Virus record (IMG/VR): IMGVR_UViG_3300044960_000439
Reading direction: 5' to 3' (one strand)
Origin: a virus
Length of the DNA: 64,000 nt
Position numbers and translations under genes: made by a program. The notes under the pieces are model-generated. The model ran no database searches. It was not told where the DNA came from and saw nothing but the letters and a program-made list of their open reading frames with translations. Below, piece after piece: positions 8,513 through 53,388 of this stretch; positions within the stretch are counted from its first letter, which is position 1; each line of letters begins with the position of its first letter.

Positions 8513-9661
8513 ATGGTCAAATCTAAACTAGAGATTGATACCAATCACGTTATCGTAGCTCATATGCTTGCTCGTGTCCCTTGTGTCCTCTGGGGACCTC
8601 CAGGAATTGGCAAGACGTCACGTGTGATGCAAATCGCTAAGACTGTTAACAGGAAATTTCATTCTATTACTTTGCCTATTTATCAGCCTGAAGACATCTG
8701 TGGTTATGTCAGACCTGATGATAACAGAAGAGTCACAGTAAAATATCCAATGGATGACTTTGCTTCTCTTGGCGAAGACTCTATACTCCTTCTAGACGAA
8801 TTTGGTTCTGTTTCAGAAGAAATGCAAGCTGCTTGCTGTCAGCTTCTTCTTGAGCATAGAGCTGGTAATCTATACTTACCACCCTCTATGTACGTTATGG
8901 GTGCTGGTAATGATATGGATTCTGCTATCAATGCCTATGAACTAGGAGCCCCTCTAGCAAACAGAATTTCTCATATAAAATTCACGACGCCCACTGTACA
9001 AGAAATGCGTACCTGGGCATCTACCGATGATTACAAAGTGGATCTTCCATCTATTAATTACAAAGAGTTCAAAGTTACTCTACCTTCTCCTTGGCGGCTT
9101 ACTGTAATAACGTTCTTGGAGTCTAGACCAGACTTGCAGTATGCTTTGCCAGAGAATAGAAGCCAAAGAAGCGGTCCTTGGCCTTCACCAAGGTCTTGGA
9201 TGGCTGCTGCAGATGTGTGGCAAGCTTTATCTTATATATATGGTTTCCATTCTTTTAATTATGATGAAGGTATAGCTACTCTAGCTTATCATGCTGCTCT
9301 ACCTAATGTAGGTGCTGGAGCTGCTACTGAATTCTTCTCTTGGGTAAAGACTATGGATATTCCCAAGATTGCAGATATTTTAGAAGGTAAAGTAAAATGG
9401 ACTCCTTCCAGGTTAGATCAGGCTTATGCTGCTGGTACTGCAATTCTATCAGTGCTACTAAGCACTATTAGCAAATCAGGTAAGCCTAATAAGGAAACCA
9501 AAGAGCTAGTAGAAGCAGCTTGGAATGTTCTCTTGTCTTGGTACAAGGGGAATATGAAACCAGTTGTATATTCATTATCCATTACTATGTTAAATAGGGA
9601 GGAACTTAAACGATTTAATGTTCCAATGGAAATAGTTGATCTCTTGGAGATGTCCTCTTAG
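8513..9661 (+). CDS. MoxR-like / AAA_5-type AAA+ ATPase (module 1)
   Basis: Walker A GPPGIGKT, Walker B LLLDEF, GAGN, LANRISH, PSPRSW. Confidence 0.88.
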   Translation: MVKSKLEIDTNHVIVAHMLARVPCVLWGPPGIGKTSRVMQIAKTVNRKFHSITLPIYQPEDICGYVRPDDNRRVTVKYPMDDFASLGEDSILLLDEFGSVSEEMQAACCQLLLEHRAGNLYLPPSMYVMGAGNDMDSAINAYELGAPLANRISHIKFTTPTVQEMRTWASTDDYKVDLPSINYKEFKVTLPSPWRLTVITFLESRPDLQYALPENRSQRSGPWPSPRSWMAAADVWQALSYIYGFHSFNYDEGIATLAYHAALPNVGAGAATEFFSWVKTMDIPKIADILEGKVKWTPSRLDQAYAAGTAILSVLLSTISKSGKPNKETKELVEAAWNVLLSWYKGNMKPVVYSLSITMLNREELKRFNVPMEIVDLLEMSS

Positions 9662-10994
9662 GAGTATTATTGTGGATAGGTCCTGGATAAATGTAACTTT
9701 ATCTTCTTTACTATCAGACCCCAGTATTGCTTACTTTGCTAGACCTATTCTTAAGTTTGAATACAAGCCTGATGAAACTGTTGTATATACTAAGCCAGCT
9801 AAGGATTTTATAATTCTGTATAACAAAAAATATAATGAGAAATATACTTCAGATTGCAAAGAGGTTGGGTATCTTAAATCCTCTATATTAGTTAGCGTAT
9901 TAAATTATGTATTGAATTATGTAATTAGAAGACAACATAGAGATAAGAAACTCTGGAAAATATGTGTTACTTTTGAAATAAATGAAATTTTGAGATATCT
10001 CAGAGTTGCAGGATTAGTCCTTCCACCGGAAGCTCTTCTTCCTAGTAACTTTGGTCTTCCACCCAATTTATTAGCTGAGCAGTATTACGACTTGTTAACT
10101 AATAAAAAGTCCAATAGCAATTCTAGTGGCTCGGATGAAGAAGGGGGATTCGGTTTTGATAGTAATGATGATGTAAATGATGAGAAAGCAAACGATAAAT
10201 CTGATAAAAGTGGTATATTGAAGAAAATACAAAGTAAAGTAGATAATAACAATAATTTTACTTCATCATACACCGACGAGATCTTTGACGAAGATTCTTC
10301 TTCTGAAAATATTGATACAAAAGCTTTATCTGCCCTATTTGCTAGCTCTCTAGCTCAAGCAATTAATTCTGGGCAACTTCCTGGCAATATGCCATTAGGA
10401 TTGAAAAGATTTGTAGATGCCATATTTAAGCCTGAAATAAATTGGAGACAGCAAGTTCTTGGCTTTATTAAACATATTCATGCCAAGACATTAGCTTCCA
10501 AACGTAGAACCTACTCTAGAGTAGCAAGACAAGAAATTCCTGGAATTATCCTTCCAGGAAGAATTGCTGATCAGACACGATTTGGTTTCTTATTTGATGT
10601 GTCTGGTAGCATGTCTGATGCTCAAGTATCTAAGTCTCTATCTGAGATGCTTGGATGCTTAAGGCAAATAAGAGCAGAAGCTTTAGTTTGGTCTTGCGAC
10701 ACGGACCTTCATTATATTAAGAAACTTAAATCGTCAGAGGCTAGTAAAGTTGTTAAAGAAGGTATAAAATTTATTGGTAGTGGTGGCACAGATATTGTTG
10801 ATTGCTTAGAGAAGTTATATACTGATCCTAAAGTAGATGCAAAAGAAATAAGTGCTTTTATTGTATTCACTGACGGCTATACTCATTGGCCTACTACAGA
10901 ACCTGTATGGTGGAGTAAATATCCAACCATAGTAGTACTTCTAGCTAATCACAAGATACCCAAGTGGGTGAGAAGTATTATGGTAAAAGAATGA
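9636..10994 (+). CDS. VWA-domain protein with DUF2201-like N-terminus (module 1)
   Basis: MIDAS FDVSGSM, GSGGTD, FTDG; INWRQ..L; acidic/Ser linker; adjacent to the AAA gene. Confidence 0.85.
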   Translation: MISWRCPLRSIIVDRSWINVTLSSLLSDPSIAYFARPILKFEYKPDETVVYTKPAKDFIILYNKKYNEKYTSDCKEVGYLKSSILVSVLNYVLNYVIRRQHRDKKLWKICVTFEINEILRYLRVAGLVLPPEALLPSNFGLPPNLLAEQYYDLLTNKKSNSNSSGSDEEGGFGFDSNDDVNDEKANDKSDKSGILKKIQSKVDNNNNFTSSYTDEIFDEDSSSENIDTKALSALFASSLAQAINSGQLPGNMPLGLKRFVDAIFKPEINWRQQVLGFIKHIHAKTLASKRRTYSRVARQEIPGIILPGRIADQTRFGFLFDVSGSMSDAQVSKSLSEMLGCLRQIRAEALVWSCDTDLHYIKKLKSSEASKVVKEGIKFIGSGGTDIVDCLEKLYTDPKVDAKEISAFIVFTDGYTHWPTTEPVWWSKYPTIVVLLANHKIPKWVRSIMVKE

Positions 10995-27993: not shown

Positions 27994-29307
27994 ACAACCC
28001 TCAACTAAAGTCGAAGGTTTTATTGTAGGACGTAGCAAGCATGCTTGCCCACATCCCCAACATTAGGCGTGTTTACAGCCGCCCTTGGCAGCGGGGCACC
28101 ACTACCAATCCGGGCAAGGTTTCGACTGGCATTGCAGTCGGCGTGCGCCCGGAGACCACACTGATCACACACGAAACGATGCTTGATGCGCCGCCCCAAC
28201 GCCCCGCAGCAAGAACATGTCTGGCTGGTGTAAGCGGGGTTGGTGTACTCGACCACGATTCCGACGGCCTTGGCCTTGTATTCGACAAAGGTCTGAAGTT
28301 GCCGAAAAGCCCAGCGATTCAGTCTCGCTCTCATGCGCTTACCAGCCTGGATGCTGCTGCGTATGTGGCGCAAGTTTTCCATCACGATCTTGAAAGCACC
28401 AATGCGCAGCGCTTCGGCAACAATCGCTTTGCTCGTTTCGTGGTTGATATGTCTGACACGTCGCCGCTCTCTGCCAGAGACCTGCCTAAGCTTCTGTTTG
28501 GCGCTTTGGCTGCCGTTGGACTGCAAACGACGACGAAGGGCAAGGTATTGATCGCGCTTGTGGCGCAGCTCCCCGCCGCCCCATACCTTGCCAGTGCTGG
28601 TGGCAGCGAGATTGTTTTCTCCGACATCCACCCCCATAACGGGGCCGGATGTCATGGGTTCAGTATCATCAGACTCGACGACGAGGTCGAAATACCATCG
28701 TCCCTTACGACAAACCAACTCGGCTTCTTTGGCTTTGCCCGACGCAAGGATGCGACGCTGGTGCTCTCCAAGCAGCACGGTGATGGTTATGCGGCCGGAA
28801 AGAGTGTAGAGGCTCAAGCGCTCCCCTTTGAAAGAATATGTGCGCTTGTCGAAATGGACGCTCGCGCGTTTGAAACGGATCGCAGGAACTGGGGCGTCCT
28901 TTTTAATGCGACCAAGCTCTTTTTGCGCCTTGTAGGCTTTGCAGACCGAGAAGATGGCATTACAGACCATTTGCGAGCCCAGTGGCGTTTCCTTGCGCAG
29001 CTTGGCATAGGCCAGATGGTGCAGCGCCACGCGGTTCCAGCAGCGGTGCTCCATTACTATTGGCACCAAGCTGTTGCAGGCCTCGGCATAAGCCGACTGC
29101 AACGCCGTCAAGGCCGCCGCTTGGTTAGGATCAACATTGAGGCGAATCGAAGCGGTGCGCAGCATAGTTTATCGCCGCTTGGTGATATGAATAGACGCAA
29201 TTCCTATTGGCAACTATGCCAATCACGTAAAACATTATACATTATATGGTGCGCTTCGCGCGACTTCAATCCTATCGCGATTGAAATCGCGGGTCTCTCT
29301 GTGGAGC
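27990..29307 (-). mobile_element. IS200/IS605-family element, tnpB-only (IS1341-like)
   Basis: Visibly GC-rich island. Left-end hairpin CGCGATTTCAATC..GATTGAAGTCGCG after TTGAC (minus strand). Right end ..CCTTCGACTTTAGTTGAGGGTTGTTTAC. Promoter TTGAAG-17-TATAAT on minus strand. Exact boundaries uncertain by a few nt. Confidence 0.85.
28020..29165 (-). CDS. tnpB: TnpB RNA-guided endonuclease
   Basis: RuvC GVDVGEN / IVMENL / HADCNASRN; Zn finger CSCCG..CDQCG; TSQTC; intact D-E-D. Confidence 0.93.
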   Translation of the reverse strand: MLRTASIRLNVDPNQAAALTALQSAYAEACNSLVPIVMEHRCWNRVALHHLAYAKLRKETPLGSQMVCNAIFSVCKAYKAQKELGRIKKDAPVPAIRFKRASVHFDKRTYSFKGERLSLYTLSGRITITVLLGEHQRRILASGKAKEAELVCRKGRWYFDLVVESDDTEPMTSGPVMGVDVGENNLAATSTGKVWGGGELRHKRDQYLALRRRLQSNGSQSAKQKLRQVSGRERRRVRHINHETSKAIVAEALRIGAFKIVMENLRHIRSSIQAGKRMRARLNRWAFRQLQTFVEYKAKAVGIVVEYTNPAYTSQTCSCCGALGRRIKHRFVCDQCGLRAHADCNASRNLARIGSGAPLPRAAVNTPNVGDVGKHACYVLQ

Positions 29308-29321
29308 GTCAATGATAGTAA

Positions 29322-38453: not shown

Positions 38454-38557
38454 TTCCTTTTCTATTTTAATTGCCATTCTACTTTGTTGTTTCTATATTT
38501 GTCTTTCTAACTTACAGGATGAAAGGTAATCAACTCTTTCCCCCAAGGAGGAACAAG

Positions 38558-39649
38558 ATGGACCTAGTTCTACAAACGGCTGTGGAAATTCTCCGCTACA
38601 ATCAACTACTTGCGGAGATGGATTCTTCTAAAGGGAAGGTTCCGTTTCTTTGGCCGTGTTTTATTGGTGAGACTGGAACTGGCAAGACGGCCCGAGCCGA
38701 ACAATTGAGCAAAATCTTTAATATGCCACATCATAGTCTCTTATTGCAGACTATGGATCCAATTGAAATTGGCGGGGCTCCCCGAGCTAGGGGAGGTAAG
38801 CTTGTGTGGCATTTGGATTCCTGGACTGAGAAGCAAGGAATTATCTTCTTAGATGAATTGGATAAACCAGACAAAGATCATTACAGTGCTGTCCTTAGTA
38901 TGCTGACGGACAGAAGGATCCGTCATGTTAAATTGGAGAATGCACTATTTGTAGCGGCTATGCAACCAGTAGAAAGAGAGTTGTTCTTGTCTCACAAAAC
39001 GAGGCAAGCTCTCTCCGCTAGGTTGGTGTTCTTACCGGTGAATGAAGTAGATTCTTTCAATTATGTGTGCAATAAGCACTACAGAATTCCCATTAAATTG
39101 CAGGCTAGTGAATACGACCTCCCTGTTCTGGATAAGATTAGTCCGCGACAACTTGACTGGCTTCTGGGTTTCTATGATTACATGACTCCCAGTCCAGAAG
39201 TATTAAATCTAGTTGTTCGTGGAGTTGTTCATAGTAAACACGTTAAGACCATAATGAAATTGCTAGAAGCTAAGACTACAGGGCATGCACTTGAATTAGG
39301 TCCCATGCTTAGGGTTCTAGCAAAGAATCCGTCTCTAGTTGATAAAGCTGATTTTGCCACTATTTCTATGGTATTCACTAGGGGCGTTACTGAACCAGGG
39401 TGGACGCCTGAAGTTCTTGAAAAGATTATGCGTAGGGTATTGACGGAAGTAGAAATCCCTCAAATCCATGAAACGTTGAAACAAATGCTCACGACTATTG
39501 TGGATAGCAAAGCTGATGTTAATGAAGCAAGAAATATGTTTGAACCATTAACTTTTGAGCAGTGGACCGAGGTAATGAACAAAGTTGTTAACAGCTCTGT
39601 TGATTTCTACATGGAAAAGTATGGAGATAAAATAAATGAGAAGAAATGA
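38558..39649 (+). CDS. MoxR-like / AAA_5-type AAA+ ATPase (module 2)
   Basis: AAGGAGG SD before ATG 38558; Walker A GETGTGKT; Walker B IFLDEL; FVAAMQP; ALSARL; SPRQLDWL. Confidence 0.88.
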   Translation: MDLVLQTAVEILRYNQLLAEMDSSKGKVPFLWPCFIGETGTGKTARAEQLSKIFNMPHHSLLLQTMDPIEIGGAPRARGGKLVWHLDSWTEKQGIIFLDELDKPDKDHYSAVLSMLTDRRIRHVKLENALFVAAMQPVERELFLSHKTRQALSARLVFLPVNEVDSFNYVCNKHYRIPIKLQASEYDLPVLDKISPRQLDWLLGFYDYMTPSPEVLNLVVRGVVHSKHVKTIMKLLEAKTTGHALELGPMLRVLAKNPSLVDKADFATISMVFTRGVTEPGWTPEVLEKIMRRVLTEVEIPQIHETLKQMLTTIVDSKADVNEARNMFEPLTFEQWTEVMNKVVNSSVDFYMEKYGDKINEKK

Positions 39650-40874
39650 GATAGGACATCTAGGAAATATTTTGCCAACTGAGGTTTGTGATTGGTTGAC
39701 TGAAAATGTTGATATAACTGCTTCAATCGGAGATCACAACGTTAGTTTATCTCTGACTGAAGAAGGGCATGTAATGAATATTGATCCAATATTTTTTAAT
39801 AATCTTACAGATGATGCCAAAAAGACTGTCCTCTTACAAGCAATTATGCATATTGTAAGAGGAGATTGTATCAACATGAGGCAAGTTGATTATCCAGAGA
39901 TCTGGAATATTGCGTCTGAAATTGTAATTAATGAACAGATTGGTGATTTAGGTCCTGCTCAAATTCAGACTGGCAGGCAATTTCTCACGTATCAGGATAT
40001 CAGGCAAGAGAAATGGCCAGAGTATACTCCACCTACAGGGTGGATTTATAACAAGTTAATTAGAGATTTGAAGAAGAAATTTGGTGAAAGCTCTTCCCTT
40101 GAGGAAGGATTACAACCACTTCCATCCGATATAAACGAGGATGATAATAAGGAGAATCTTACTAATTCTCACCTTCCAATTGACTACATGACTTATGCTA
40201 CTAAAGAAGGCAATTACCTTTATGTAAGAGTTAATCCTGCAGAAGGTGATTTGGATAAGTGCAAGGAAGCCTATGCTTCTACCTTTCTACAGGCCCCTAG
40301 TAGCTTTCTTGGTGGACATGATCTTCCAGATTACGATAGAAATCTGGAATATAAGCCAACACCTGAACCGAAAGTATTACGAGTTTTAGAATGCATTCTT
40401 TCTCAAATAACTAGTTATCAAGGTGATACTAAAGTAACTAATAAAACGTGGTTTAAAGAACACAGATCAAGTAGATATTCTAAAGGGACTCGTAGACTAC
40501 GGAGACTTACAATAGAAGTTGGTGTAGACGTTTCTGGTAGCATGGCAGAACATCTACTGAGGGTAATTGGAATAGCAGAATGGCTCAAGCAAACGCATGA
40601 CGTTACTGTAATTGCTTGGGCTGATAGAGCTGCAAAAGTAGATAATTCCAATTACAGTAAAGTATCAGTAGGAGGCGGTACAAATCCAACCTCCGTATTG
40701 AAAATGATTAAGAAAGATAACCCTGATGTTGCAGTCATTATGACTGATGGTTATTTCTGTGAAGCTGCCGAGCCGATTCCCACTTGCCCTGTAATTTGGA
40801 TTCTAGTAAATAACGCAACAGAAAGTGATATATTTAAGAGACCAATTGATCAGGTAGTTAAATTGACAGATTAG
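39636..40874 (+). CDS. DUF2201-like + VWA protein (module 2)
   Basis: WNIASEIVIN, MIDAS VDVSGSM, GGGTN, MTDG; HExxH replaced by QAIMH. Confidence 0.85.
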   Translation: MRRNEIGHLGNILPTEVCDWLTENVDITASIGDHNVSLSLTEEGHVMNIDPIFFNNLTDDAKKTVLLQAIMHIVRGDCINMRQVDYPEIWNIASEIVINEQIGDLGPAQIQTGRQFLTYQDIRQEKWPEYTPPTGWIYNKLIRDLKKKFGESSSLEEGLQPLPSDINEDDNKENLTNSHLPIDYMTYATKEGNYLYVRVNPAEGDLDKCKEAYASTFLQAPSSFLGGHDLPDYDRNLEYKPTPEPKVLRVLECILSQITSYQGDTKVTNKTWFKEHRSSRYSKGTRRLRRLTIEVGVDVSGSMAEHLLRVIGIAEWLKQTHDVTVIAWADRAAKVDNSNYSKVSVGGGTNPTSVLKMIKKDNPDVAVIMTDGYFCEAAEPIPTCPVIWILVNNATESDIFKRPIDQVVKLTD

Positions 40875-41728: not shown

Positions 41729-41746
41729 GGAATAAATATCTGGGAG
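41729..41746 (+). promoter_or_regulatory. Phage promoter-like motif GGAATAAATATCTGGGAG
   Basis: Preceded by AATTTGC exactly like the 4581 copy; ends 9 nt before the orphan CRISPR repeat. Confidence 0.6.
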
Positions 41747-41755
41747 TCCTTTCGC

Positions 41756-41791
41756 GTTGCAATGCCTGCGAAGAGGCTTGGTTTCTTCGAC
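41756..41791 (+). CRISPR. Orphan CRISPR repeat (36 nt) GTTGCAATGCCTGCGAAGAGGCTTGGTTTCTTCGAC
   Basis: The last 33 nt match repeat 45505..45537 except for 2 positions; 3' stem CGAAGA/TCTTCG followed by AC. Confidence 0.8.
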
Positions 41792-41840
41792 ATTTGTAAG
41801 GACTTTTGGTAGCTACATTTTAATCCCGGGAGGAAAAGCT

Positions 41841-42551
41841 ATGAGGTACCTATCTCTCCTTATTGGCCTGCTTTCTATTTGTATTACCATTACTTCTCAA
41901 GCACAAAATCTCAAAACACTTAATGACCCAAATGTTGAAGTAAGGATTTTGTGTGATGGTGTACAAATTACTAATACGAGTCCTGCAGAAGTCAGTGTAT
42001 TTGATTGGACTGTAGTAATTGGACAGAGAACTGATGATCATTATCCTCAGCCGTTGTGTTGTGCTTATATTTTAGATGGTAAATACGATCCAGTTATCAC
42101 TTACACTTCATTTGGAACTCCAAAGCAAGGTCTTCGCGAGAACGTTAGAGGCGGTGGTTTCTATTTTCATTGCACAATCCCACCACGTAATTCTGTCGTA
42201 CTAAGGGCTCTAGTACTTGGTTTCGGTAATGCTCACGCTATTACAAATATTCCGAAAAACGCAGTTTATAAACGAGTTAATAGAAATCTTGGTAGAAAAC
42301 ATGCTTTTGGAATCTATGCTTGCATGTCTACAATTCAAACTGCAATAGATAAGGGAGTCACTAAAGAAGAAGATTTGAAATCGACCAAAGAGATTGGTAT
42401 CCTGCTATTAGCTTTTTACGAAGAAAAATTTCCAGAATATGCGAGAATACGAGCTGTCATTTCAGAAGACTTTTATAAACAGCTAAGAGATCATTTCAGT
42501 GATATGCAACGCACAGGAGAACAACTATATAAAACAGTCTTTTGCGAGTAA
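41841..42551 (+). CDS. Exported hypothetical protein
   Basis: GGGAGG SD before ATG 41841; signal peptide MRYLSLLIGLLSICITITSQA; the listed TTG start 41757 lies inside the CRISPR repeat. Confidence 0.75.
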   Translation: MRYLSLLIGLLSICITITSQAQNLKTLNDPNVEVRILCDGVQITNTSPAEVSVFDWTVVIGQRTDDHYPQPLCCAYILDGKYDPVITYTSFGTPKQGLRENVRGGGFYFHCTIPPRNSVVLRALVLGFGNAHAITNIPKNAVYKRVNRNLGRKHAFGIYACMSTIQTAIDKGVTKEEDLKSTKEIGILLLAFYEEKFPEYARIRAVISEDFYKQLRDHFSDMQRTGEQLYKTVFCE

Positions 42552-42663: not shown

Positions 42664-42775
42664 CCGGTGGTAATGTTGAGCTACCGGAAACGCTATGGGC
42701 GGGCGGTCCGCCCATGTAATCACCAGCCAGAGTGCTGGCGGCGAGCCGGCTTGGCCGAGACGACCGGAGGAGTGT
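42664..42775 (+). other. GC-rich multi-hairpin leader
   Basis: CCGGTGG/CTACCGG, ATGGGCGG/CCGCCCAT and CCAGC/GCTGG stems before the GGAGG SD of 42780. Confidence 0.45.
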
Positions 42776-42779
42776 TGCT

Positions 42780-43544
42780 ATGTCTGCTATTGTTAAGGTT
42801 ACCGTTCAGCGTACCAAGGATTGGGTGCGCGCACGGCGATTGGAAACCGGGGAAAACGTCCCGGAAACAATCGAAGTTGAGGTCCTAGCAGATCAGTTAC
42901 CTCGCGAAGTCCGGGAGCTACTGATCGAAGCCGGGGGCGGATCATACCCCGACGAATTCGCTGGCGATATCCGGCAGGACTACCTATGGATGTATCGGTC
43001 CGACTTGCGGTACGGGCGTGTACCGATCATCGTAGATGCCGACCAACCGACGCCGGAGTCAATAGCCGCGGCGATTCTGACTGCCGACAAGGAACGGCGT
43101 CGGATGAAGATGGAAGTTGAGGAAAAGATTCGTCAGCGTGAAGAACGAGAGCGTGCACTTGCCGAAGAATGGGCGCGGCTGCCCCTGGAGCAGCGGGCCA
43201 GTGCGGCTGGCGTGTGCGTTGCCCGCGACCCCGAGACGGGTACCATGAGCGCCTATGGGGTGCAATTGTACGATATCTCGGCGCTGAAGAAGTACGTACC
43301 AGAGGCGTTGGACGAGGCGGTCCTGGAGGTGGAACGCCTTCGCGAAATCGAGCGTGGCAGAGAGGCGATCAAGCATCGCGCTCTGCTGGCTGAATTACTC
43401 GGCTTAGTACCAGAAGACGCGCTGCGGCATGCCGTTAAACGTGCCGCCATTGATGGTATCGCCGGGAAACCGGCGTCAATTGAAGAAGTGCGGAAACAAG
43501 TCCATCAAGCCTGCCAGGCTGGCGGCGTCCGCATAAGTATTTAA
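42780..43544 (+). CDS. GC-rich hypothetical protein with coiled-coil
   Basis: GGAGG SD before ATG 42780, in frame with listed 42732; codon style distinct from the AT-rich backbone. Confidence 0.75.
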   Translation: MSAIVKVTVQRTKDWVRARRLETGENVPETIEVEVLADQLPREVRELLIEAGGGSYPDEFAGDIRQDYLWMYRSDLRYGRVPIIVDADQPTPESIAAAILTADKERRRMKMEVEEKIRQREERERALAEEWARLPLEQRASAAGVCVARDPETGTMSAYGVQLYDISALKKYVPEALDEAVLEVERLREIERGREAIKHRALLAELLGLVPEDALRHAVKRAAIDGIAGKPASIEEVRKQVHQACQAGGVRISI

Positions 43545-43564
43545 CAAACGTTGCGTTTATTACA

Positions 43565-43596
43565 GGCGGCCGGTGTGTACTCAAGCACCGGCCGCC
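43565..43596 (+). other. Perfect 11-bp hairpin between 42780..43544 and the Cas12m-like gene
   Basis: GGCGGCCGGTG-tgtactcaag-CACCGGCCGCC; no U tract. Confidence 0.6.
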
Positions 43597-43717
43597 GTTG
43601 TATCGGAAATCAGCGCTTCCTACTTCGCCCTGCAGTAAGAGATGCTCTAACGAATGTTGTCTATTCTAGTGGAACTGAGGGTTCTTTATCTCTAGGAATG
43701 GGAATAGGAGGACTATC

Positions 43718-45379
43718 ACGCCATTCGGCAGAATAGCCGGCCCAACTATTGTCTATAAATATGGGGCGAAAAAACCAACTACAAACGCAGAAGCGATTTT
43801 GGACCAGTTGCGCAAAGCACATCAGTACCGCAACAAGCTTGTCGAAATAGAGCTTCAACGACGCAAACTCGTCGAAGAAGCTGTCAAGAATATCGAAAGT
43901 GATGTCCGCCATTTGACGGACAAGTTAGAACAGCTTGAACTGGACATTGACTATACGGTTAGAAAAATCAGCAACCACAAACAGAAGAATCAGACTCGAA
44001 CTATCCCTGTCGAATTGAAAGAACGTCTCAAATCATTGAAAACTCAGTACAGAGAAGCGCTGCGGCGTATGAAAAAGGCCAAGAAAGCCGCGTACGCTCG
44101 TCCAGAAACGCAGGAGGCATTGAATCGAATTGAAGGAAAAGTGAGGGCTGAACACAAAAAAGCCCGTAATTTGTGTGGGCTCTATTGGGGTACTTACTGC
44201 CACGTAGAGCAGATCATCCCATGTATCAGAAAAGGACCGCCGCCGAAATTCCGCCGTTTCGACGGCAGCGGTGTATTAGCGGTCCAGCTTCAAAAGGGAG
44301 AAAACATTGCACGGTTGGAGAGCGGCGAAGACCGTCGCATCCGCATTGAGGGCTGCGGCAAGCGACGCATATTATGGCTGCGCATCGGATCGGACGAGAA
44401 CCGCGATCCGATCTGGGCGACGATTCCATTTACTTATCATCGTGAAATTCCAAGCGATGCGAAAATCAAGTGGGTGAAAGTCAAAGCCCAACGCATTGCA
44501 TGCCAAACTGAGTGGGAGGTGCTCTTTACGCTGGAACGGAGTTCCGGCTGGAAAAAGCCCGACCTAGCTCAGGATGGAGCAGTTGCCATCGACATCGGTT
44601 GGCGCAATTTCGATGATCGCATTCGCGTAGCATACTGGATTGGTAGTGACGGACGCGAAGGCGAAATTGCACTGCCCCATAACATGGTTGGCAAGGCGCT
44701 TGAACAAGTTGAGCATTTACGATCATTGCGAGACAAGAATTTTAACGAGATTAAGCAGCAACTGCTTGACGCTATCGGTGCGCTCCAGATTCCGGAGTGG
44801 CTAAAGGAGGTTACGAAAACGCTGCATCAGTGGCGTAGTCAAGGAAGACTGGCGGCGCTGGCCATTCGATGGCGGCAACAGCGATTCGATGGTGACAATG
44901 ATATATTTGCTCTACTAGAAACGTGGCGGGTCCGCGACAAGCACCTTTACGAATGGGAGGCACATCTCCGCGTGAAGGCTATTCGTTGCCGCAACGATTA
45001 TTTTGCCAACGTCGTAGCCGATTTGTCTCGTCGTTACAAGACAGCGGTTGTTGAGGATTTTGACTTGCGGAACGTTACACAGGTCGATCCGATACAAACG
45101 GAACAAATTGGCGATGGACGTCAGCTCTATCGTGCACACATCGCCGCGGCCGGTGGCTTACGGCAGATGATTAAGAATCGCTTTGCCGAAACGCAGATCG
45201 TGTCTGCCGTGCTCACAACGCAGACCTGCACGGAGTGCGGCGAAATCATGAACTTCGACGCGGCCGAGAGCGTATTTAGCAAATGTTCACATTGTGGCCA
45301 TGCGTTTGATCAAGACCGCGCAGCGGCGATTAACCTGATGCGACGATACGAGGAAAGGCTAGTTGCTGCGAACAGCTAG
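43718..45379 (+). CDS. cas12m: Type V-U1/V-M (Cas12m-like) TnpB-derived RuvC effector, ~553 aa, apparent ACG start
   Basis: IVYKYGAKKP..LDQLRKAHQYRNKLVEIE, LYWGTY, KFRRFDGSGVLAVQLQ, PIWATIPF..HREIP, RuvC-I VAIDIGWR, QWRS.GRLAAL..RW, RuvC-II VVEDFDLR, Zn finger CTECG..CSHCG, RuvC-III FDQDRAAAINL; CRISPR repeats downstream. Frame is open from 43679; the listed TTG 43799 cuts off conserved residues. Confidence 0.85.
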   Translation, partial: TPFGRIAGPTIVYKYGAKKPTTNAEAILDQLRKAHQYRNKLVEIELQRRKLVEEAVKNIESDVRHLTDKLEQLELDIDYTVRKISNHKQKNQTRTIPVELKERLKSLKTQYREALRRMKKAKKAAYARPETQEALNRIEGKVRAEHKKARNLCGLYWGTYCHVEQIIPCIRKGPPPKFRRFDGSGVLAVQLQKGENIARLESGEDRRIRIEGCGKRRILWLRIGSDENRDPIWATIPFTYHREIPSDAKIKWVKVKAQRIACQTEWEVLFTLERSSGWKKPDLAQDGAVAIDIGWRNFDDRIRVAYWIGSDGREGEIALPHNMVGKALEQVEHLRSLRDKNFNEIKQQLLDAIGALQIPEWLKEVTKTLHQWRSQGRLAALAIRWRQQRFDGDNDIFALLETWRVRDKHLYEWEAHLRVKAIRCRNDYFANVVADLSRRYKTAVVEDFDLRNVTQVDPIQTEQIGDGRQLYRAHIAAAGGLRQMIKNRFAETQIVSAVLTTQTCTECGEIMNFDAAESVFSKCSHCGHAFDQDRAAAINLMRRYEERLVAANS

Positions 45380-45501
45380 GTACGATAATATAGATATTAA
45401 TCGCTCGTAATATACAAGTTGAAACAACGTAATAGATGTCACAACGACTGCTACCAAAAAGAGGTCCAACATGTTATAAAGAACATAGTTAGATGAACGC
45501 T
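45380..45501 (+). promoter_or_regulatory. Probable CRISPR leader
   Basis: AT-rich non-coding 122 nt between effector stop and first repeat; contains ATGTT/AACAT inverted repeat. Confidence 0.5.
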
Positions 45502-45598
45502 CGTGCAATGCCTGCGAAGAGGCTTTATTTCTTCGACAGTGAAATGGATGATCAGAAGGGAACGTGTAATGCCTACGGAGAGGCTTCATTTCTTCGAC
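45502..45598 (+). CRISPR. CRISPR mini-array: two 36-nt repeats and one 25-nt spacer
   Basis: R1 45502-45537 CGTGCAATGCCTGCGAAGAGGCTTTATTTCTTCGAC; spacer AGTGAAATGGATGATCAGAAGGGAA; R2 45563-45598 CGTGTAATGCCTACGGAGAGGCTTCATTTCTTCGAC (4 mismatches to R1). Confidence 0.85.
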
Positions 45599-45612
45599 GA
45601 GGCGTCAGTACT

Positions 45613-45685
45613 GGGCCGGTAGCTCAGTGGTGAGAGCGGGCGCCTTATAAGCGTCAGGTCGCAGGTTCAATTCCTGCCCGGCCTA
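45613..45685 (+). tRNA. tRNA-Ile(UAU)
   Basis: Acceptor GGGCCGG/CCGGCCT; anticodon arm GGCGC-CTTATAA-GCGTC; T loop GGTTCAATTCC. Confidence 0.92.
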
Positions 45686-45719
45686 CTGTTTCATCCCCTT
45701 CCCCATATAGGAGGACAAT

Positions 45720-46497: not shown

Positions 46498-47592
46498 ATG
46501 AATAATGACATTACTATCAAGGCGGCGAAATCTATTCTTGAGTACAATATCATTCTTGGGTGTCAAGATCAGGAAGACAAACAAGGTTATATTTGGCCAT
46601 GTTTCATTGGACCGACTGGCAGCGGGAAGACTGCCAGGGCTGAGAAGTTGGCCAAGGAGTTGGGTTTGAAGCAGCACAAATTGCTGCTTCAGACGATGAA
46701 TCCAGAAGAAGTTGGTGGGATTCCTCGTCCCGTTGGTGACAACCTTCATTGGTTCCTTGATTCTTGGGCTGAAGATAATAGCTGTATTATCTTGGATGAG
46801 CTTGATAAGCCGGATCGTGAGCACTGGTCCACGATCCTTTCTTTGTTGACTGACCGTAAATTGCGTCATAAGCAACTAAATAGTACTGTCTTTGTGGCTG
46901 CTATGCAGCCTGTCGATGTTGAAATGTTCTTGTATGAAGAAACTGGCAGGGCACTCAGTGCCCGGCTTTGTTTTCTTCCCATTAATGAGAATGACTCATT
47001 TGAATTCGTTAGTAAGAAACATGGAAGGAAAAACTTGTTCCATCATGTTGGAGAAATTAAACTTCCAGTTTTGGAAGACGTGAAGGCCCGGCAATTGGAT
47101 TGGCTCGCTGGCTTTGTGGATTCTATGAATCCGGAAGCCTCGGTCTTGAATTTGGTGGTGAATGGGATCGTTCACCACAGGCATAGGGCCAAAGTCTTTG
47201 AATGGCTTGAAGCCAGGTTGGTTACTGAACTTGAGCCTGAAAGATTACTCAAGATTCTCGGCAGGAAGCCTGAATTGCATGATGAACTGGATATTGCTAC
47301 TGTCAATTTGCTCTGGCAGAATGCCAGTACTCTCTACGGTTGGACTGAAGAGATTTTAGAGAAGGTTTTGACCAGGATTTCTTGTGAAGTTGAACGCGAG
47401 CAGGCGTTCAATGTAATGAGAAATATGGTTGATAATTTGAAAAAGTATCCGGAAGATCAGGATGGCTATAAACCATTTGTTGAACCATTGACTTATGAAC
47501 AATGGTGTCGAGTTGTGGATAAAGTTTCCAACAATATTGTAAAGTACTTTACCGCAAAGGAGAATAAAAATGGACAATCTAAACAAGGATAG
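46498..47592 (+). CDS. MoxR-like / AAA_5-type AAA+ ATPase (module 3)
   Basis: GPTGSGKT, IILDELDKP, FVAAMQP, ALSARL; close paralogue of module 2. Confidence 0.88.
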   Translation: MNNDITIKAAKSILEYNIILGCQDQEDKQGYIWPCFIGPTGSGKTARAEKLAKELGLKQHKLLLQTMNPEEVGGIPRPVGDNLHWFLDSWAEDNSCIILDELDKPDREHWSTILSLLTDRKLRHKQLNSTVFVAAMQPVDVEMFLYEETGRALSARLCFLPINENDSFEFVSKKHGRKNLFHHVGEIKLPVLEDVKARQLDWLAGFVDSMNPEASVLNLVVNGIVHHRHRAKVFEWLEARLVTELEPERLLKILGRKPELHDELDIATVNLLWQNASTLYGWTEEILEKVLTRISCEVEREQAFNVMRNMVDNLKKYPEDQDGYKPFVEPLTYEQWCRVVDKVSNNIVKYFTAKENKNGQSKQG

Positions 47593-48766
47593 TCCATATT
47601 ATTACTATAATTTGTTTCCTGTTGAACTCAGTGATTGGATGAAGAAATATATTAATATTCAATGGAATAACGATTTGCCATCGGCAGCTGTAAAGCTGTC
47701 GGCTGATAAAGGTTATATCATTGAATTAAACAAAGAGTTTATGGGGAAGCTCTCTGACAATTGTAAGAAGAAAGTAATTCTGCATGAAATTAGTCACGTC
47801 ATTCGTGGCGATTGTCTGACGATAAAAAAGTGTGAGCGTCCCCTTGATTACAACATAGCCAGTGATGCTCACATCAACACCCAAATTGGTGATCTGACTG
47901 AATTAGAGGAGGAGGCTGGTACTAAAGTTGTTACTTACGAAAGGATTCGTGAAGAAGATTGGCCGGAAGGGATGCCTTCCACTAAAGTAATTTATGACCT
48001 CCTTAATAAGAAGAGGAAACAGCAATCTTCTAAGGGGAAGGAAAGTTCTTCTGAAGAAGGAGGTGACGACAATAATTGTGGTACTGATAAAAAGTTCATT
48101 CTTTCAGGTGACGTTAAAGGTACTGAAGGTGATTTTGAGATTTGCATTGATAAACATACAGAAGCAATAGCAACTGTTCCTAAAGCATTAGGTGCGGGTA
48201 TTAATATCAGATTTGATAATTTTGATAGTAAAGTTTATGAAGTGCGACCGAAGCCAGAACCCAAAATATTGACGGCTTTGAAGAAATTGCTTCGCTATGT
48301 AGTACCAAAATATGGTACTACGAAAGTGAAGGTAAAGACTTGGACGAGGGAAAATCGCTCTAATGATTTGTTTCGTGGTTACATGCGTAAACGTAAGGTG
48401 AAAGTATGCCTTGCTGTTGATGTTAGTGGCAGCATGCGTGAGTATGTCCCAAACATACTCGGCATTGCTGCTGATATGAAGCATAAATTAGATACGGAGA
48501 TTATTGTTTGGGCAGACTATGCCCAGAAAATTCGTGGTGTTGATGATAAATGGGATGTTGGCTGGGGAACCGACGTAAACCCAGCAATTGAATTGATTAA
48601 CAAAATTAATCCTGATATTTCTGTAATTGTTACTGACGGTGATTTTTATCGTAATATTGAGAAAATACCAAAGACACCAGTGCTTTGGGTGCTTTATGGT
48701 GATTTCAGTTGCTCACACAAATTGGTTAAGAAGGCGGTGGATCAAATCATCAAAATTTCAGCATAA
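47570..48766 (+). CDS. DUF2201-like metallopeptidase + VWA protein (module 3)
   Basis: Intact ILHEISH (HExxH), YNIASDAHIN, MIDAS VDVSGSM, GWGTD, VTDG. Confidence 0.87.
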   Translation: MDNLNKDSPYYYYNLFPVELSDWMKKYINIQWNNDLPSAAVKLSADKGYIIELNKEFMGKLSDNCKKKVILHEISHVIRGDCLTIKKCERPLDYNIASDAHINTQIGDLTELEEEAGTKVVTYERIREEDWPEGMPSTKVIYDLLNKKRKQQSSKGKESSSEEGGDDNNCGTDKKFILSGDVKGTEGDFEICIDKHTEAIATVPKALGAGINIRFDNFDSKVYEVRPKPEPKILTALKKLLRYVVPKYGTTKVKVKTWTRENRSNDLFRGYMRKRKVKVCLAVDVSGSMREYVPNILGIAADMKHKLDTEIIVWADYAQKIRGVDDKWDVGWGTDVNPAIELINKINPDISVIVTDGDFYRNIEKIPKTPVLWVLYGDFSCSHKLVKKAVDQIIKISA

Positions 48767-52071: not shown

Positions 52072-52144
52072 GGGGTCGTAGCTCAGCGGGTAGAGCATCG
52101 GACTTTTAATCCGAAGGTCATGGGTTCGAGTCCCATCGGCCTCA
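52072..52144 (+). tRNA. tRNA-Lys(UUU)
   Basis: Acceptor GGGGTCG/CGGCCTC; anticodon arm TCGGA-CTTTTAA-TCCGA; GGTTCGAGTCC. Confidence 0.95.
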
Positions 52145-52149
52145 CAGAA

Positions 52150-53388
52150 ATTGCGGCGCGGAAACCCCGGACTTCAGTCCGGGGAGGAAGCGCCGTCTCT
52201 TGATCTGCTCTGCGGTATGTGATACTATACAGTATGCCACAGCGCACCGTTGTATGCAAGATAAATCCAGCCCCGGTGGCGGCTAACGCCCTCAAGGATA
52301 CTGTAGAGAAGTACGCGCTCGCCTGTGATGCTATCCTCGCCGTAACCATCCGTGAGAAGACTTCCAACAAGGTTAAGCTCCATCACGCCTGCTACAGGGA
52401 GATCAGGGAGCGCTTCGGCCTCTCTGCCAACCTGACCGTCCGCGCCATTGCCCGCGTGGCGTGGGCGGTCAAGGCAGCAAGGTGCAAGGGACGAGTCGTC
52501 AAGAAGTTCAAGCCGACGAGCATAGACTATGACGAACGCATCTTCTCCTATCGCGAGAATGAGGAGGTAGTGTCCCTATCTACCACGAATGGACGTGTCC
52601 GCGTCCCCCTTGTACTCGGACAGTACCAGCGAGATGCATTGCGCGGGAAGAAACCCACCGCCGCAAAGCTCGTCTATCGGAACCGTGAATGGTACATCCA
52701 CATCGTCATAGAGTATGATCCGGGCCCGCGGTCCAACCCGAGCTGCGCCATCGGCGTGGATCGAGGTGTCTACAATATCGCTACTACCTCCACAGGGAAG
52801 TTCTATTCCGGACGTAAAGCCACGCACGTGCGCGAGAAGTTCGCGTCGCGGAGAAAGGCTCTCCAGAGCTTGGGCACGAAAGGCGCAAAACGCGCCCTGA
52901 AACGGCTGAGCGGACGGGAGAGCCGGTACATCCGCGACCTGAACCATCGAATCTCGAAGGCCATCGTTGCGGAGGCGGTTCGGAGAAACGCCGTGATCAA
53001 GTTGGAGGACTTGACCGGCATCCGGGATCGCCTCAAGCGGCTCAGCCGCGCTTGGAATCGGAAGGTCAACGCTTGGGCTTTCCGAGCACTGGAGACGATG
53101 ATCCGGTACAAGGCCGAACGTGCTTGGGTCGAAGTCGTTTCGGTTCCTGCTCGTGACACGAGCCGCGAATGTTCCAAGTGCGGAGCCGTGGGCGAAAACT
53201 CTCGAAGCGGGGCACATTTCAGGTGCGCCGTCTGCGGCTATCGTCTGGCCGCCGACTTGAATGCCGCAAGGACGATTTCTGGGAGGCATGCCTGCACAGA
53301 AATGGTCGCCGTCAACCGACCTATGGTGGCGGGGTTGCATTCGTGCACCTCAGCTACAAGCCCCGCACTTTAGTGCGGGGTAGTTGAC
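52150..53388 (+). mobile_element. IS200/IS605-family element, tnpB-only, inserted just 3' of tRNA-Lys
   Basis: LE hairpin CGGCGC..CCCCGGACTTCAGTCCGGGG..GCGCCG; RE CCCCGCACTTTAGTGCGGGGTAGTTGAC; GC-rich; promoter TTGATC-17-TACTAT; left boundary approximate. Confidence 0.87.
52234..53373 (+). CDS. tnpB: TnpB RNA-guided endonuclease
   Basis: RuvC GVDRGVYN / IKLEDL / AADLNAART; Zn finger CSKCG..CAVCG; ATG 52234 lies 5 nt after the -10 box (leaderless). Confidence 0.93.
   Translation: MPQRTVVCKINPAPVAANALKDTVEKYALACDAILAVTIREKTSNKVKLHHACYREIRERFGLSANLTVRAIARVAWAVKAARCKGRVVKKFKPTSIDYDERIFSYRENEEVVSLSTTNGRVRVPLVLGQYQRDALRGKKPTAAKLVYRNREWYIHIVIEYDPGPRSNPSCAIGVDRGVYNIATTSTGKFYSGRKATHVREKFASRRKALQSLGTKGAKRALKRLSGRESRYIRDLNHRISKAIVAEAVRRNAVIKLEDLTGIRDRLKRLSRAWNRKVNAWAFRALETMIRYKAERAWVEVVSVPARDTSRECSKCGAVGENSRSGAHFRCAVCGYRLAADLNAARTISGRHACTEMVAVNRPMVAGLHSCTSATSPAL

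Follow-up and report, generated by a model that had tools for sequence, protein, structure and literature searches.

A probable type V-M CRISPR-Cas12m locus with a two-repeat array in a large AT-rich phage of hot-spring mats

The 64,000-nt sequence analyzed here, referred to below as the window, is IMG/VR virus record IMGVR_UViG_3300044960_000439 and comes from hot-spring and microbial-mat metagenomes. Its stretch from 43,718 to 45,598 contains a 553-codon gene, an AT-rich leader, and two CRISPR repeats around one spacer, and is followed by a gene for tRNA-Ile (Table 1). The initial annotation, made from the sequence alone, had taken the gene product for a Cas12m (type V-U1) effector rather than TnpB, accompanied by a mini-array and carried by a phage on a horizontally acquired cassette. 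Our analysis leads us to regard the locus as probably a genuine type V-M (formerly V-U1) CRISPR-Cas12m locus of a large AT-rich hot-spring-mat phage, which would silence its targets by RNA-guided DNA binding.

The gene product matched Cas12m proteins over its full length. A single-sequence search against the Protein Data Bank (PDB) returned chain 23vw, a 'DNA-binding protein Cas12m' (E 3e-68), and further full-length matches to Cas12m2 (1e-21), GoCas12m (8pm4; 1.5e-19), and Cas12m4a (4e-13), whereas TnpB and Cas12f aligned at the C-terminus only (E 0.003 or worse). When a family profile built on a 65-member alignment of cas12m relatives was used, five Cas12m chains were matched full length with E from 8e-157 (23vw) to 3e-58, compared with E 2e-13 or worse for TnpB and Cas12f, in the C-terminal RuvC/zinc-finger part only. 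MsCas12m and the window protein showed 32% identity end to end (E 4e-78). The AlphaFold2 model of the protein (predicted local distance difference test 91.6, predicted template-modeling score 0.82) had a template-modeling (TM) score of 0.85 to Cas12m2 (8hhl) and GoCas12m (8pm4), with a root-mean-square deviation of 3.3-3.5, and TM scores of 0.43 or less to Cas12f and TnpB. By these scores it has the Cas12m fold, which is defined by a WED domain, a REC domain with long helices, a RuvC domain with a helical insertion, and a zinc-finger TNB domain. The zinc-finger cysteines are C504, C507, C523, and C526 (CxxC..CxxC). The sequence segments first quoted as typical of Cas12m were all found in frame, and LYWGTY, GWR, and QW(RS) correspond to nearly invariant columns of the 65-member alignment. 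On sequence profile and predicted fold, the window protein is a full-length Cas12m, and the PDB profile match, the MsCas12m homology, and the fold thus bear out its assignment to V-U1/Cas12m rather than TnpB.

The array is also of Cas12m type. Among the related loci that we collected (numbered L001 onwards), the same repeat forms arrays of 6 to 13 units behind orthologous cas12m genes (10 in L001/L002, 13 in L006, 8 in L004/L005, and 6 each in L003 and L007), so that the two-repeat array of the window is no chance pattern. Nine repeats follow the gene in L008/L009 from IMG/VR, whose protein is 39% identical. The spacers of the relatives differ in sequence and are mostly 33-39 nt long. The leader is visibly well conserved in the AT-rich siblings and recognizably homologous in the GC-rich loci L001 and L006. 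Across 32 repeat variants, a pseudoknot GCC(9-11)/GGC(20-22) and a 6-bp stem (14-19/29-34) were paired in 98.6% of cells, against 35-55% in slid controls, with compensatory changes at two pairs; these positions match those of the PmCas12m crRNA (bioRxiv 10.64898/2026.03.26.714355). The MsCas12m repeat has GCAATGCCT, AGGCTT, and the terminal AC in common with the window repeat, and its stem is fully compensated. Judged by these sequence features, the window repeat is orthologous to that of MsCas12m. The repeat analysis and the arrays of the relatives therefore agree with the initial description of a 122-nt leader, two 36-nt repeats ending in a stem plus AC, and one 25-nt spacer.

No reverse-complement copy of the repeat (with up to 12 mismatches) was found in the window or in the related loci, and there is therefore no candidate for a tracrRNA. 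In addition, no inverted repeat involving the array and no terminator-like site between the array and the tRNA-Ile gene were found, and scans of the locus for sigma-70 promoters and terminators gave background level only.

Table 1 Features of the cas12m locus and its upstream region in the window (positions in the 64,000-nt sequence).
Feature	Position	Strand	Description
Promoter-like motif GGAATAAATAT	41729..41739	+	16 nt 5' of the solitary repeat; putative promoter
40-nt insertion, TCGC + 36-nt solitary repeat (41756-41791)	41752..41791	+	5' leader of an exported-protein gene
GC-rich open reading frame (ORF)	42732..43544	+	270 aa from GTG (254 aa from ATG 42780); left part of the island
Shine-Dalgarno AGGAGGA	43706..43712	+	read from the sequence; 5 nt ahead of codon 43718
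cas12m	43718..45379	+	553 codons, TAG stop 45377-45379; Cas12m by homology
Leader	45380..45501	+	122 nt, AT-rich
CRISPR repeat 1	45502..45537	+	36 nt
Spacer (single)	45538..45562	+	25 nt, 40% GC
CRISPR repeat 2	45563..45598	+	36 nt; 4 mismatches to repeat 1, base pairing preserved
14-nt linker + tRNA-Ile(UAU)	45599..45686 (tRNA 45613-45686)	+	ARAGORN, Rfam; directly behind the last repeat

The surroundings of the locus are those of a phage. The window has four tRNAs, nearly all of its genes lie on one strand, and they include genes for a T4-type RNA ligase, an endolysin, tail-fiber domains, a dCTP deaminase, and a dihydrofolate reductase (DHFR). The tail-fiber, endolysin, RNA ligase, and tRNA context upholds the view that the locus is phage-borne. 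Cas1, Cas2, Cas4, Y1-transposase, and resolvase domains had no Pfam match in the 82 ORFs of at least 70 aa in the 64-kb window, which confirms the reported lack of cas1, cas2, and cas4. None of these three genes appeared among the precomputed Pfam matches of the called genes shown for loci L001-L007. The statement that insertion sequence (IS) ends are missing was likewise sustained, with no TnpA, Y1, or serine recombinase domain found and cas12m present in a single copy in the window.

The cas12m gene lies in an island (~42690-45690) of 50-61% GC within a backbone of ~35% GC, and the island shares 75-83% identity with L001 and L006, two phage contigs that are GC-rich (58%). The cas12m genes of the AT-rich phages had a GC content at third codon positions of 0.48-0.54, compared with 0.61-0.63 for those of the GC-rich phages. 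Composition and identity together suggest that the island moved from a GC-rich phage lineage of the same habitat and was then partially ameliorated, consistent with the GC-richer, horizontally acquired cassette proposed initially. The 270-aa ORF of the island (58% GC) had no Pfam, NCBIfam, structure, or Atlas match; homologous DNA is present in the GC-rich L001 and in the siblings L003, L004, and L019, and absent from L007. All AT-rich siblings have the cas12m locus at the same place, ahead of tRNA-Ile; in L004, additional genes separate the array from the tRNA. Since its content differs between siblings, the island is no unit IS element. A neighbor-gene search in IMG/VR retrieved no further siblings.

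One sibling locus, L019 (6308-7470; 91% identical flanks), has the 270-aa gene and a perfect two-repeat mini-array with one 37-nt spacer ahead of tRNA-Ile. It has no cas12m and carries inside the locus a gene for a 390-aa TnpB similar to the one encoded elsewhere in the window. Because cas12m is missing, the L019 mini-array could only use Cas12m supplied in trans.

By homology to MsCas12m, GoCas12m, MmCas12m, and PmCas12m, the following mechanism can be proposed. The leader would drive a short pre-crRNA consisting of repeat, 25-nt spacer, repeat, 14 nt, and tRNA-Ile. Cas12m would hold the pseudoknot of the repeat and, without the RuvC domain, trim the repeat at its variable 5' end, and the resulting complex of crRNA and protein would recognize a T-rich protospacer-adjacent motif (PAM), open an R-loop of ~18-20 bp, and stay bound with no cut, blocking transcription or replication of the target. 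Further upstream, a solitary copy of the repeat lies behind a promoter-like motif, and through it the leader of the following gene would become another guide RNA. A rival phage or plasmid, possibly a sibling phage, is the probable target.

Several observations weigh against this interpretation, the first of which is the start codon. Frame +1 has no stop codon between 43679 and the TAG at 45377-45379. In the window, the codon at 43718-43720 is ACG, which is absent from the start codons of translation table 11, and the family has ATG: in the alignment of start regions, all five relatives (86-93% identical) have ATG exactly at 43718, and the homologues P0001-P0005 (553-556 aa; 86-93% identity) start with M(A/P)FGR at this codon. 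The Shine-Dalgarno sequence GGAGGACT upstream of the cas12m start is kept in all relatives. At position 43719, a ~98%-identical strain from another hot-spring run has T, and C is found in the probable source run, which is not independent of the window. The earliest in-frame ATG, GTG, or TTG is the TTG at 43799. It would yield a protein of 526 aa and drop residues 1-27, including the confidently modeled strand TIVYKYGA (residues 10-17) at the predicted start of the fold. Judged by homology, the 553-codon reading is correct, yet this copy is without a normal start.

The other difficulties concern the array, its targets, and the genome. The array has the minimal size of two repeats, and no protospacer for the spacers of the window or of its siblings was found in any search. 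Specifically, the window spacer had no exact 20-mer match in IMG/VR or the JGI metagenomes, and blastn of the array against the INPHARED phages gave chance-level matches only (E 0.3 or worse). A set of 95 distinct spacers and flank guides matched the related loci only from array to array or in homologous flanks, and when the arrays from the window and from L004 and L007 were compared with five whole IMG/VR records, matches were confined to the repeats. Two metatranscriptome runs from a study with a close strain (~12% of each run read) gave zero reads, which speaks neither for nor against expression. Non-cleavage is extrapolated from ~32%-identical orthologues assayed at 37 C, whereas the present protein comes from hot springs and has an intact D-E-D triad. 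The designation as a phage rests on accessory and tail-fiber genes, as the window has no capsid or terminase gene. Furthermore, given that the array is minimal and that L019 has lost cas12m, the phages may be in the course of losing the locus. With ACG in place of ATG and an array down to one spacer, the activity of Cas12m in this genome is uncertain and the output of the locus is probably low.

It is thus conceivable, though in our view rather unlikely, that the locus is a decaying remnant, in which the start has been lost, only a single inherited spacer is left of the array, and deletion is pending as in L019. The ACG codon and the mini-array without cas12m in L019 would both fit such decay, as would an array of only two repeats with four differences between them. 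The best alignment of the repeat-spacer-repeat unit of the window (84%) is to a unit inside the 8-repeat array of L004, as expected after a deletion between repeats, and the window spacer has 16 of 25 positions in common with a 25-nt spacer of L004. However, the 553-codon ORF is intact. The dN/dS of cas12m was 0.07-0.10 in every pair among the relatives, including pairs with the window (0.10 versus its siblings), and the window gene has eight unique substitutions compared with 6-28 in the relatives, which is no excess. The coding sequence is therefore still under strong purifying selection. All base pairs are kept in both repeats, and the Shine-Dalgarno sequence is perfect and correctly spaced. 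ACG and ATC are weak yet real initiation codons in bacteria. The start-codon change could be very recent, and because dN/dS and the number of unique substitutions resemble those of the relatives, it is either recent, or tolerated, or an error, and not a sign of long decay.

A different role is suggested by the solitary repeat at 41756-41791, which has one mismatch to the family repeat consensus and lies on the same strand as cas12m, 3.7 kb upstream of the array, with cas12m 2 kb away. It stands 46 nt 5' of the ATG at 41838 of an exported-protein gene (41838-42551). Compared with L004, the insertion that contains it is a clean 40-nt indel, and L007 has the same insertion. The motif GGAATAAATAT in front of it has its sole exact copy in the window at this site, is kept in siblings L004 and L007, and has a variant, GGCATAAATA, ahead of tRNA-Ile in siblings; we infer from the sequence that it may act as a promoter. 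No repeat was found upstream of the L019 mini-array, but the L019 copy of the insertion site was not located. L001, L006, and L012 likewise contain solitary or degenerate units. Viruses are known to carry solitary repeats behind promoters, some of which are RNA anti-CRISPRs, termed Racrs (PMC10651486). The repeat at 41756-41791, which is solitary, lies behind a promoter-like motif, and forms a 40-nt indel between siblings, might be of this kind, yet the phage's own cas12m is only 2 kb off.

From these units one could argue that Cas12m here regulates its own phage's transcripts by binding or processing solitary repeats in leaders, or that the repeats are Racr decoys against the Cas12m of a host or rival, with the mini-array secondary. 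The position of the solitary repeat between a promoter-like motif and a start codon, its retention in L007, the further units in related loci, and the published precedents all speak for this reading, as does a solitary Cas12m-type repeat 18 nt 5' of an ATG on another viral contig (L011/L020), a unit also seen in the source run on a 73-kb contig whose depth equals that of the window's contig. On the other hand, no partial (seed) self-target was found in the window for any guide, including those behind the solitary and terminal repeats, and the long arrays with diverse spacers in the relatives favor interference as the core role. The regulatory reading is compatible with silencing by the array rather than exclusive of it. 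As the primary function of the locus, we consider it distinctly unlikely.

The L011/L020 unit is on an 86.9-kb AT-rich viral contig of IMG/VR (33.6% GC) that has no overlap with the window except the repeat. The 73-kb contig with the L011-type unit belongs to run X1 and has a depth of 16.9, versus 16.5 for the contig of the window; the two contigs may belong to one large phage genome, although equal depth is only suggestive. Degenerate mini-arrays of 2-3 repeats with 9-35-nt spacers were also observed ~0.7 kb upstream of cas12m in L001 (7479-7562) and L006 (1321-1472), ahead of small genes that precede cas12m. They might be an autoregulatory unit.

Whether the complex would bind or cut its target turns on the RuvC triad, which consists of D292 (44591-44593), E446 (45053-45055), and D533 (45314-45316). 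The initial annotation was right that RuvC I, II, and III keep D, E, and D; the kept triad is no evidence of nuclease activity, as D-E-D orthologues do not cleave and the triad has been lost in 10 of the 65 relatives. In these ten, NAD, NDD, NGD, DRD, NED, or DEH is found in otherwise intact proteins. In published work, every Cas12m orthologue, whether with D-E-D, H-D-D, or N-D-D, bound dsDNA next to a PAM and left it uncut; four D-E-D orthologues, including the thermophile-derived MsCas12m, showed no cleavage of target DNA, collateral DNA, or RNA (PMC11013384). The orthologues silence plasmids and phages, and their pre-crRNA processing is independent of RuvC (PMC11013384). The closest solved chain, 23vw, also has D-E-D in the PDB alignment and was deposited as a 'DNA-binding protein'. 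Because the orthologues bind without cleaving and the triad has repeatedly been replaced in relatives, crRNA-guided binding and silencing is favored. It is very doubtful that this clade instead cuts target DNA as an active RNA-guided nuclease, even though the triad is intact in a thermophilic setting and kept in 55 of the 65 relatives, the published non-cleavage assays were done at 37 C (PMC11013384), and the authors describing MvCas12m propose nuclease activity from its D-E-D triad (bioRxiv 10.64898/2026.09.14.751636).

That the gene belongs to a TnpB-type insertion sequence, with the 'repeats' as its omega-RNA scaffold, is extremely improbable and was rejected: Pfam recognizes only the TNB zinc-ribbon domain and a true TnpB gene does lie elsewhere in the window (52219-53373), but the NCBIfam TnpB models score far under their cut-offs (NF038280, 31.6 bits against 350; NF040570, 27.2 against 100), Pfam gave no OrfB_IS605 (PF01385) match in the Cas12m protein, similarity to the window TnpB is restricted to 63 C-terminal residues, no TnpA or second copy is present in the window, family profile and fold are those of Cas12m rather than of IS-associated TnpB, and the relatives have multi-spacer arrays.

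The window TnpB has 384 aa with OrfB_IS605 and TNB domains and belongs to phrog_506. Its gene lies in an island of its own (52072-53373; 57% GC) directly behind tRNA-Lys(UUU), and gives this phage a second foreign gene for an RNA-guided nuclease.

Comparison of the siblings offers a hint as to where guides might come from in the silencing system that we favor. Three junctions between a repeat and phage DNA are unambiguous, namely that of the window terminal repeat with tRNA-Ile, that of the L007 terminal repeat, and that of the 40-nt solitary-repeat insertion. In siblings without the junction, the homologous DNA is preceded by TTG, TTA, or CTT, the TTG being the one ahead of tRNA-Ile and the CTT the one flanking the empty insertion site of L004; a promoter-like motif stands immediately in front of two of these sites. 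These trinucleotides fit the published Cas12m PAMs, TTN and YTN. A T at position -2 in three junctions has roughly p = 0.03 in AT-rich DNA and is only suggestive. A fourth PAM-like junction (L019/L003 versus L004) was dropped, as microhomology makes it ambiguous. One speculative scenario, in which we place little confidence, is that the repeats capture guides by recombination, not by Cas1-Cas2, and act on sibling phages at promoter-proximal sites. If so, the guide of the phage with the junction would silence the 'empty' allele in a sibling phage that infects the same cell, or drive recombination there, while the phage's own junction copy would be shielded by the repeat end GAC; a TnpB-like homing logic would then have been kept in a Cas12m system.

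Among known systems, the locus is most readily compared with type V-M, whose members include GoCas12m (8pm4), MmCas12m/Cas12m2 (8hhl, 8hio), PmCas12m, PDB 23vw, and MsCas12m, the last encoded on plasmid pMESIL02 of Allomeiothermus silvanus and from a hot spring as well. It shares with them the full-length homology, the fold, and a 36-nt repeat with the GCC/GGC pseudoknot, 6-bp stem, and 3' AC, has no tracrRNA candidate and no cas1, cas2, or cas4, and has D-E-D as in MsCas12m and 23vw. It differs in being on a phage rather than a plasmid or chromosome, and in its single 25-nt spacer, its ACG start, and its extra solitary repeat. The presence of V-M on plasmids and 'some prophages' has already been reviewed (PMC11656645), and MvCas12m of myxophage MV-1, with D-E-D, eight spacers, and no cas1, cas2, or cas4, was reported in September 2026 as the first phage case (bioRxiv 10.64898/2026.09.14.751636). 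As described, MvCas12m resembles the window protein in being phage-encoded, in its D-E-D triad and adjacent array, and in lacking cas1, cas2, cas4, a tracrRNA, and a protospacer. It has 610 aa, eight spacers, and a GC-rich myxobacterial host, compared with 553 aa, one spacer, and an AT-rich hot-spring phage here; moreover, among the siblings of the window both the repeats and the gene have been gained and lost.

A second phage relative is found in Virus Rctr197k (KX853510), a 197-kb member of the Caudoviricetes, which encodes a 30%-identical homologue (98% of the query covered). Behind the gene, on the same strand, is an annotated CRISPR of ~22 repeats of 36 nt with the same stem-plus-AC design (locus L021, 3444-6900). 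It differs in its long array, in its origin from a methane-oxidizing enrichment culture, and in the label of the gene, 'similar to transposase'; KX853510 contains an unrecognized phage V-M locus. Phage-borne Cas12m that comes with an array but lacks cas1, cas2, and cas4 is thus of a known kind, and the locus is less novel than it was first rated.

Two further groups show partial likeness. Viral mini-arrays of one or two spacers and single repeats behind promoters (PMC6858448; Racrs, PMC10651486) are thought to serve conflict between viruses or inhibition of CRISPR. Viruses with mini-arrays mostly have no cas genes and borrow or jam those of the host, a pattern that L019 fits, whereas the phage of the window brings its own effector. 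TnpB with its omega-RNA (IS200/IS605) and the nuclease-dead TnpB-like repressors have the same RuvC plus zinc-finger core, and the geometry of the solitary repeat is like that of omega-RNA, with a T-rich motif (the target-adjacent motif, TAM, of TnpB), an inserted scaffold, and the flank as guide. Cas12m is set apart from them by its full-length similarity and fold, by the lack of a transposase and of IS ends, and by its size (553 versus ~400 aa).

The locus adds an independent case of phage Cas12m, in a large AT-rich hot-spring phage, with D-E-D and ~32% identity to the nearest characterized orthologue. Its main value is comparative, as siblings ~80-93% identical have 8, 6, or 2 repeats, with or without the solitary repeat and with or without cas12m. 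This series permits tests of the array targets, of array change without Cas1-Cas2, and of the solitary repeat as guide, regulator, or decoy. As a compact and probably thermostable programmable DNA binder of 553 aa, the protein could also be of modest practical interest as a tool.

Homologues and repeats of Cas12m type were also observed in bacterial metagenome-assembled genomes (MAGs). A Verrucomicrobiae MAG (G004; loci L015, L016, and L017) contains a fragmented cas12m copy besides two intact homologues (~32% identity). Behind the gene, a two-repeat mini-array with a similar spacer is present in both L015 and L017, and only a single repeat was seen in L016; these copies resemble duplicated or mobile units. 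A Solirubrobacterales MAG (G003) has 25 near-identical Cas12m-type repeats with irregular spacers of 10-67 nt (L013, 2703-4421), and no cas12m homologue was detected in its 3.1 Mb with the window query.

Elsewhere in the window, a third GC-rich island (28041-29315; 56% GC) contains two ORFs, of 424 and 381 aa, that overlap on opposite strands and had no Pfam, PHROG, or PDB match. Genes for a MoxR-like AAA ATPase and a DUF2201 protein (VWA/metallopeptidase-like) occur as three paralogous pairs (8513-10994, 38471-40874, and 46498-48766), two of which end at a tRNA. The region 1-29312 encodes the dCTP deaminase, a MazZ-like dATP/dGTP pyrophosphohydrolase, a nucleoside 2-deoxyribosyltransferase, and the T4-type RNA ligase, with DHFR further on, and this nucleotide-metabolism set together with DHFR may point to modified DNA bases.

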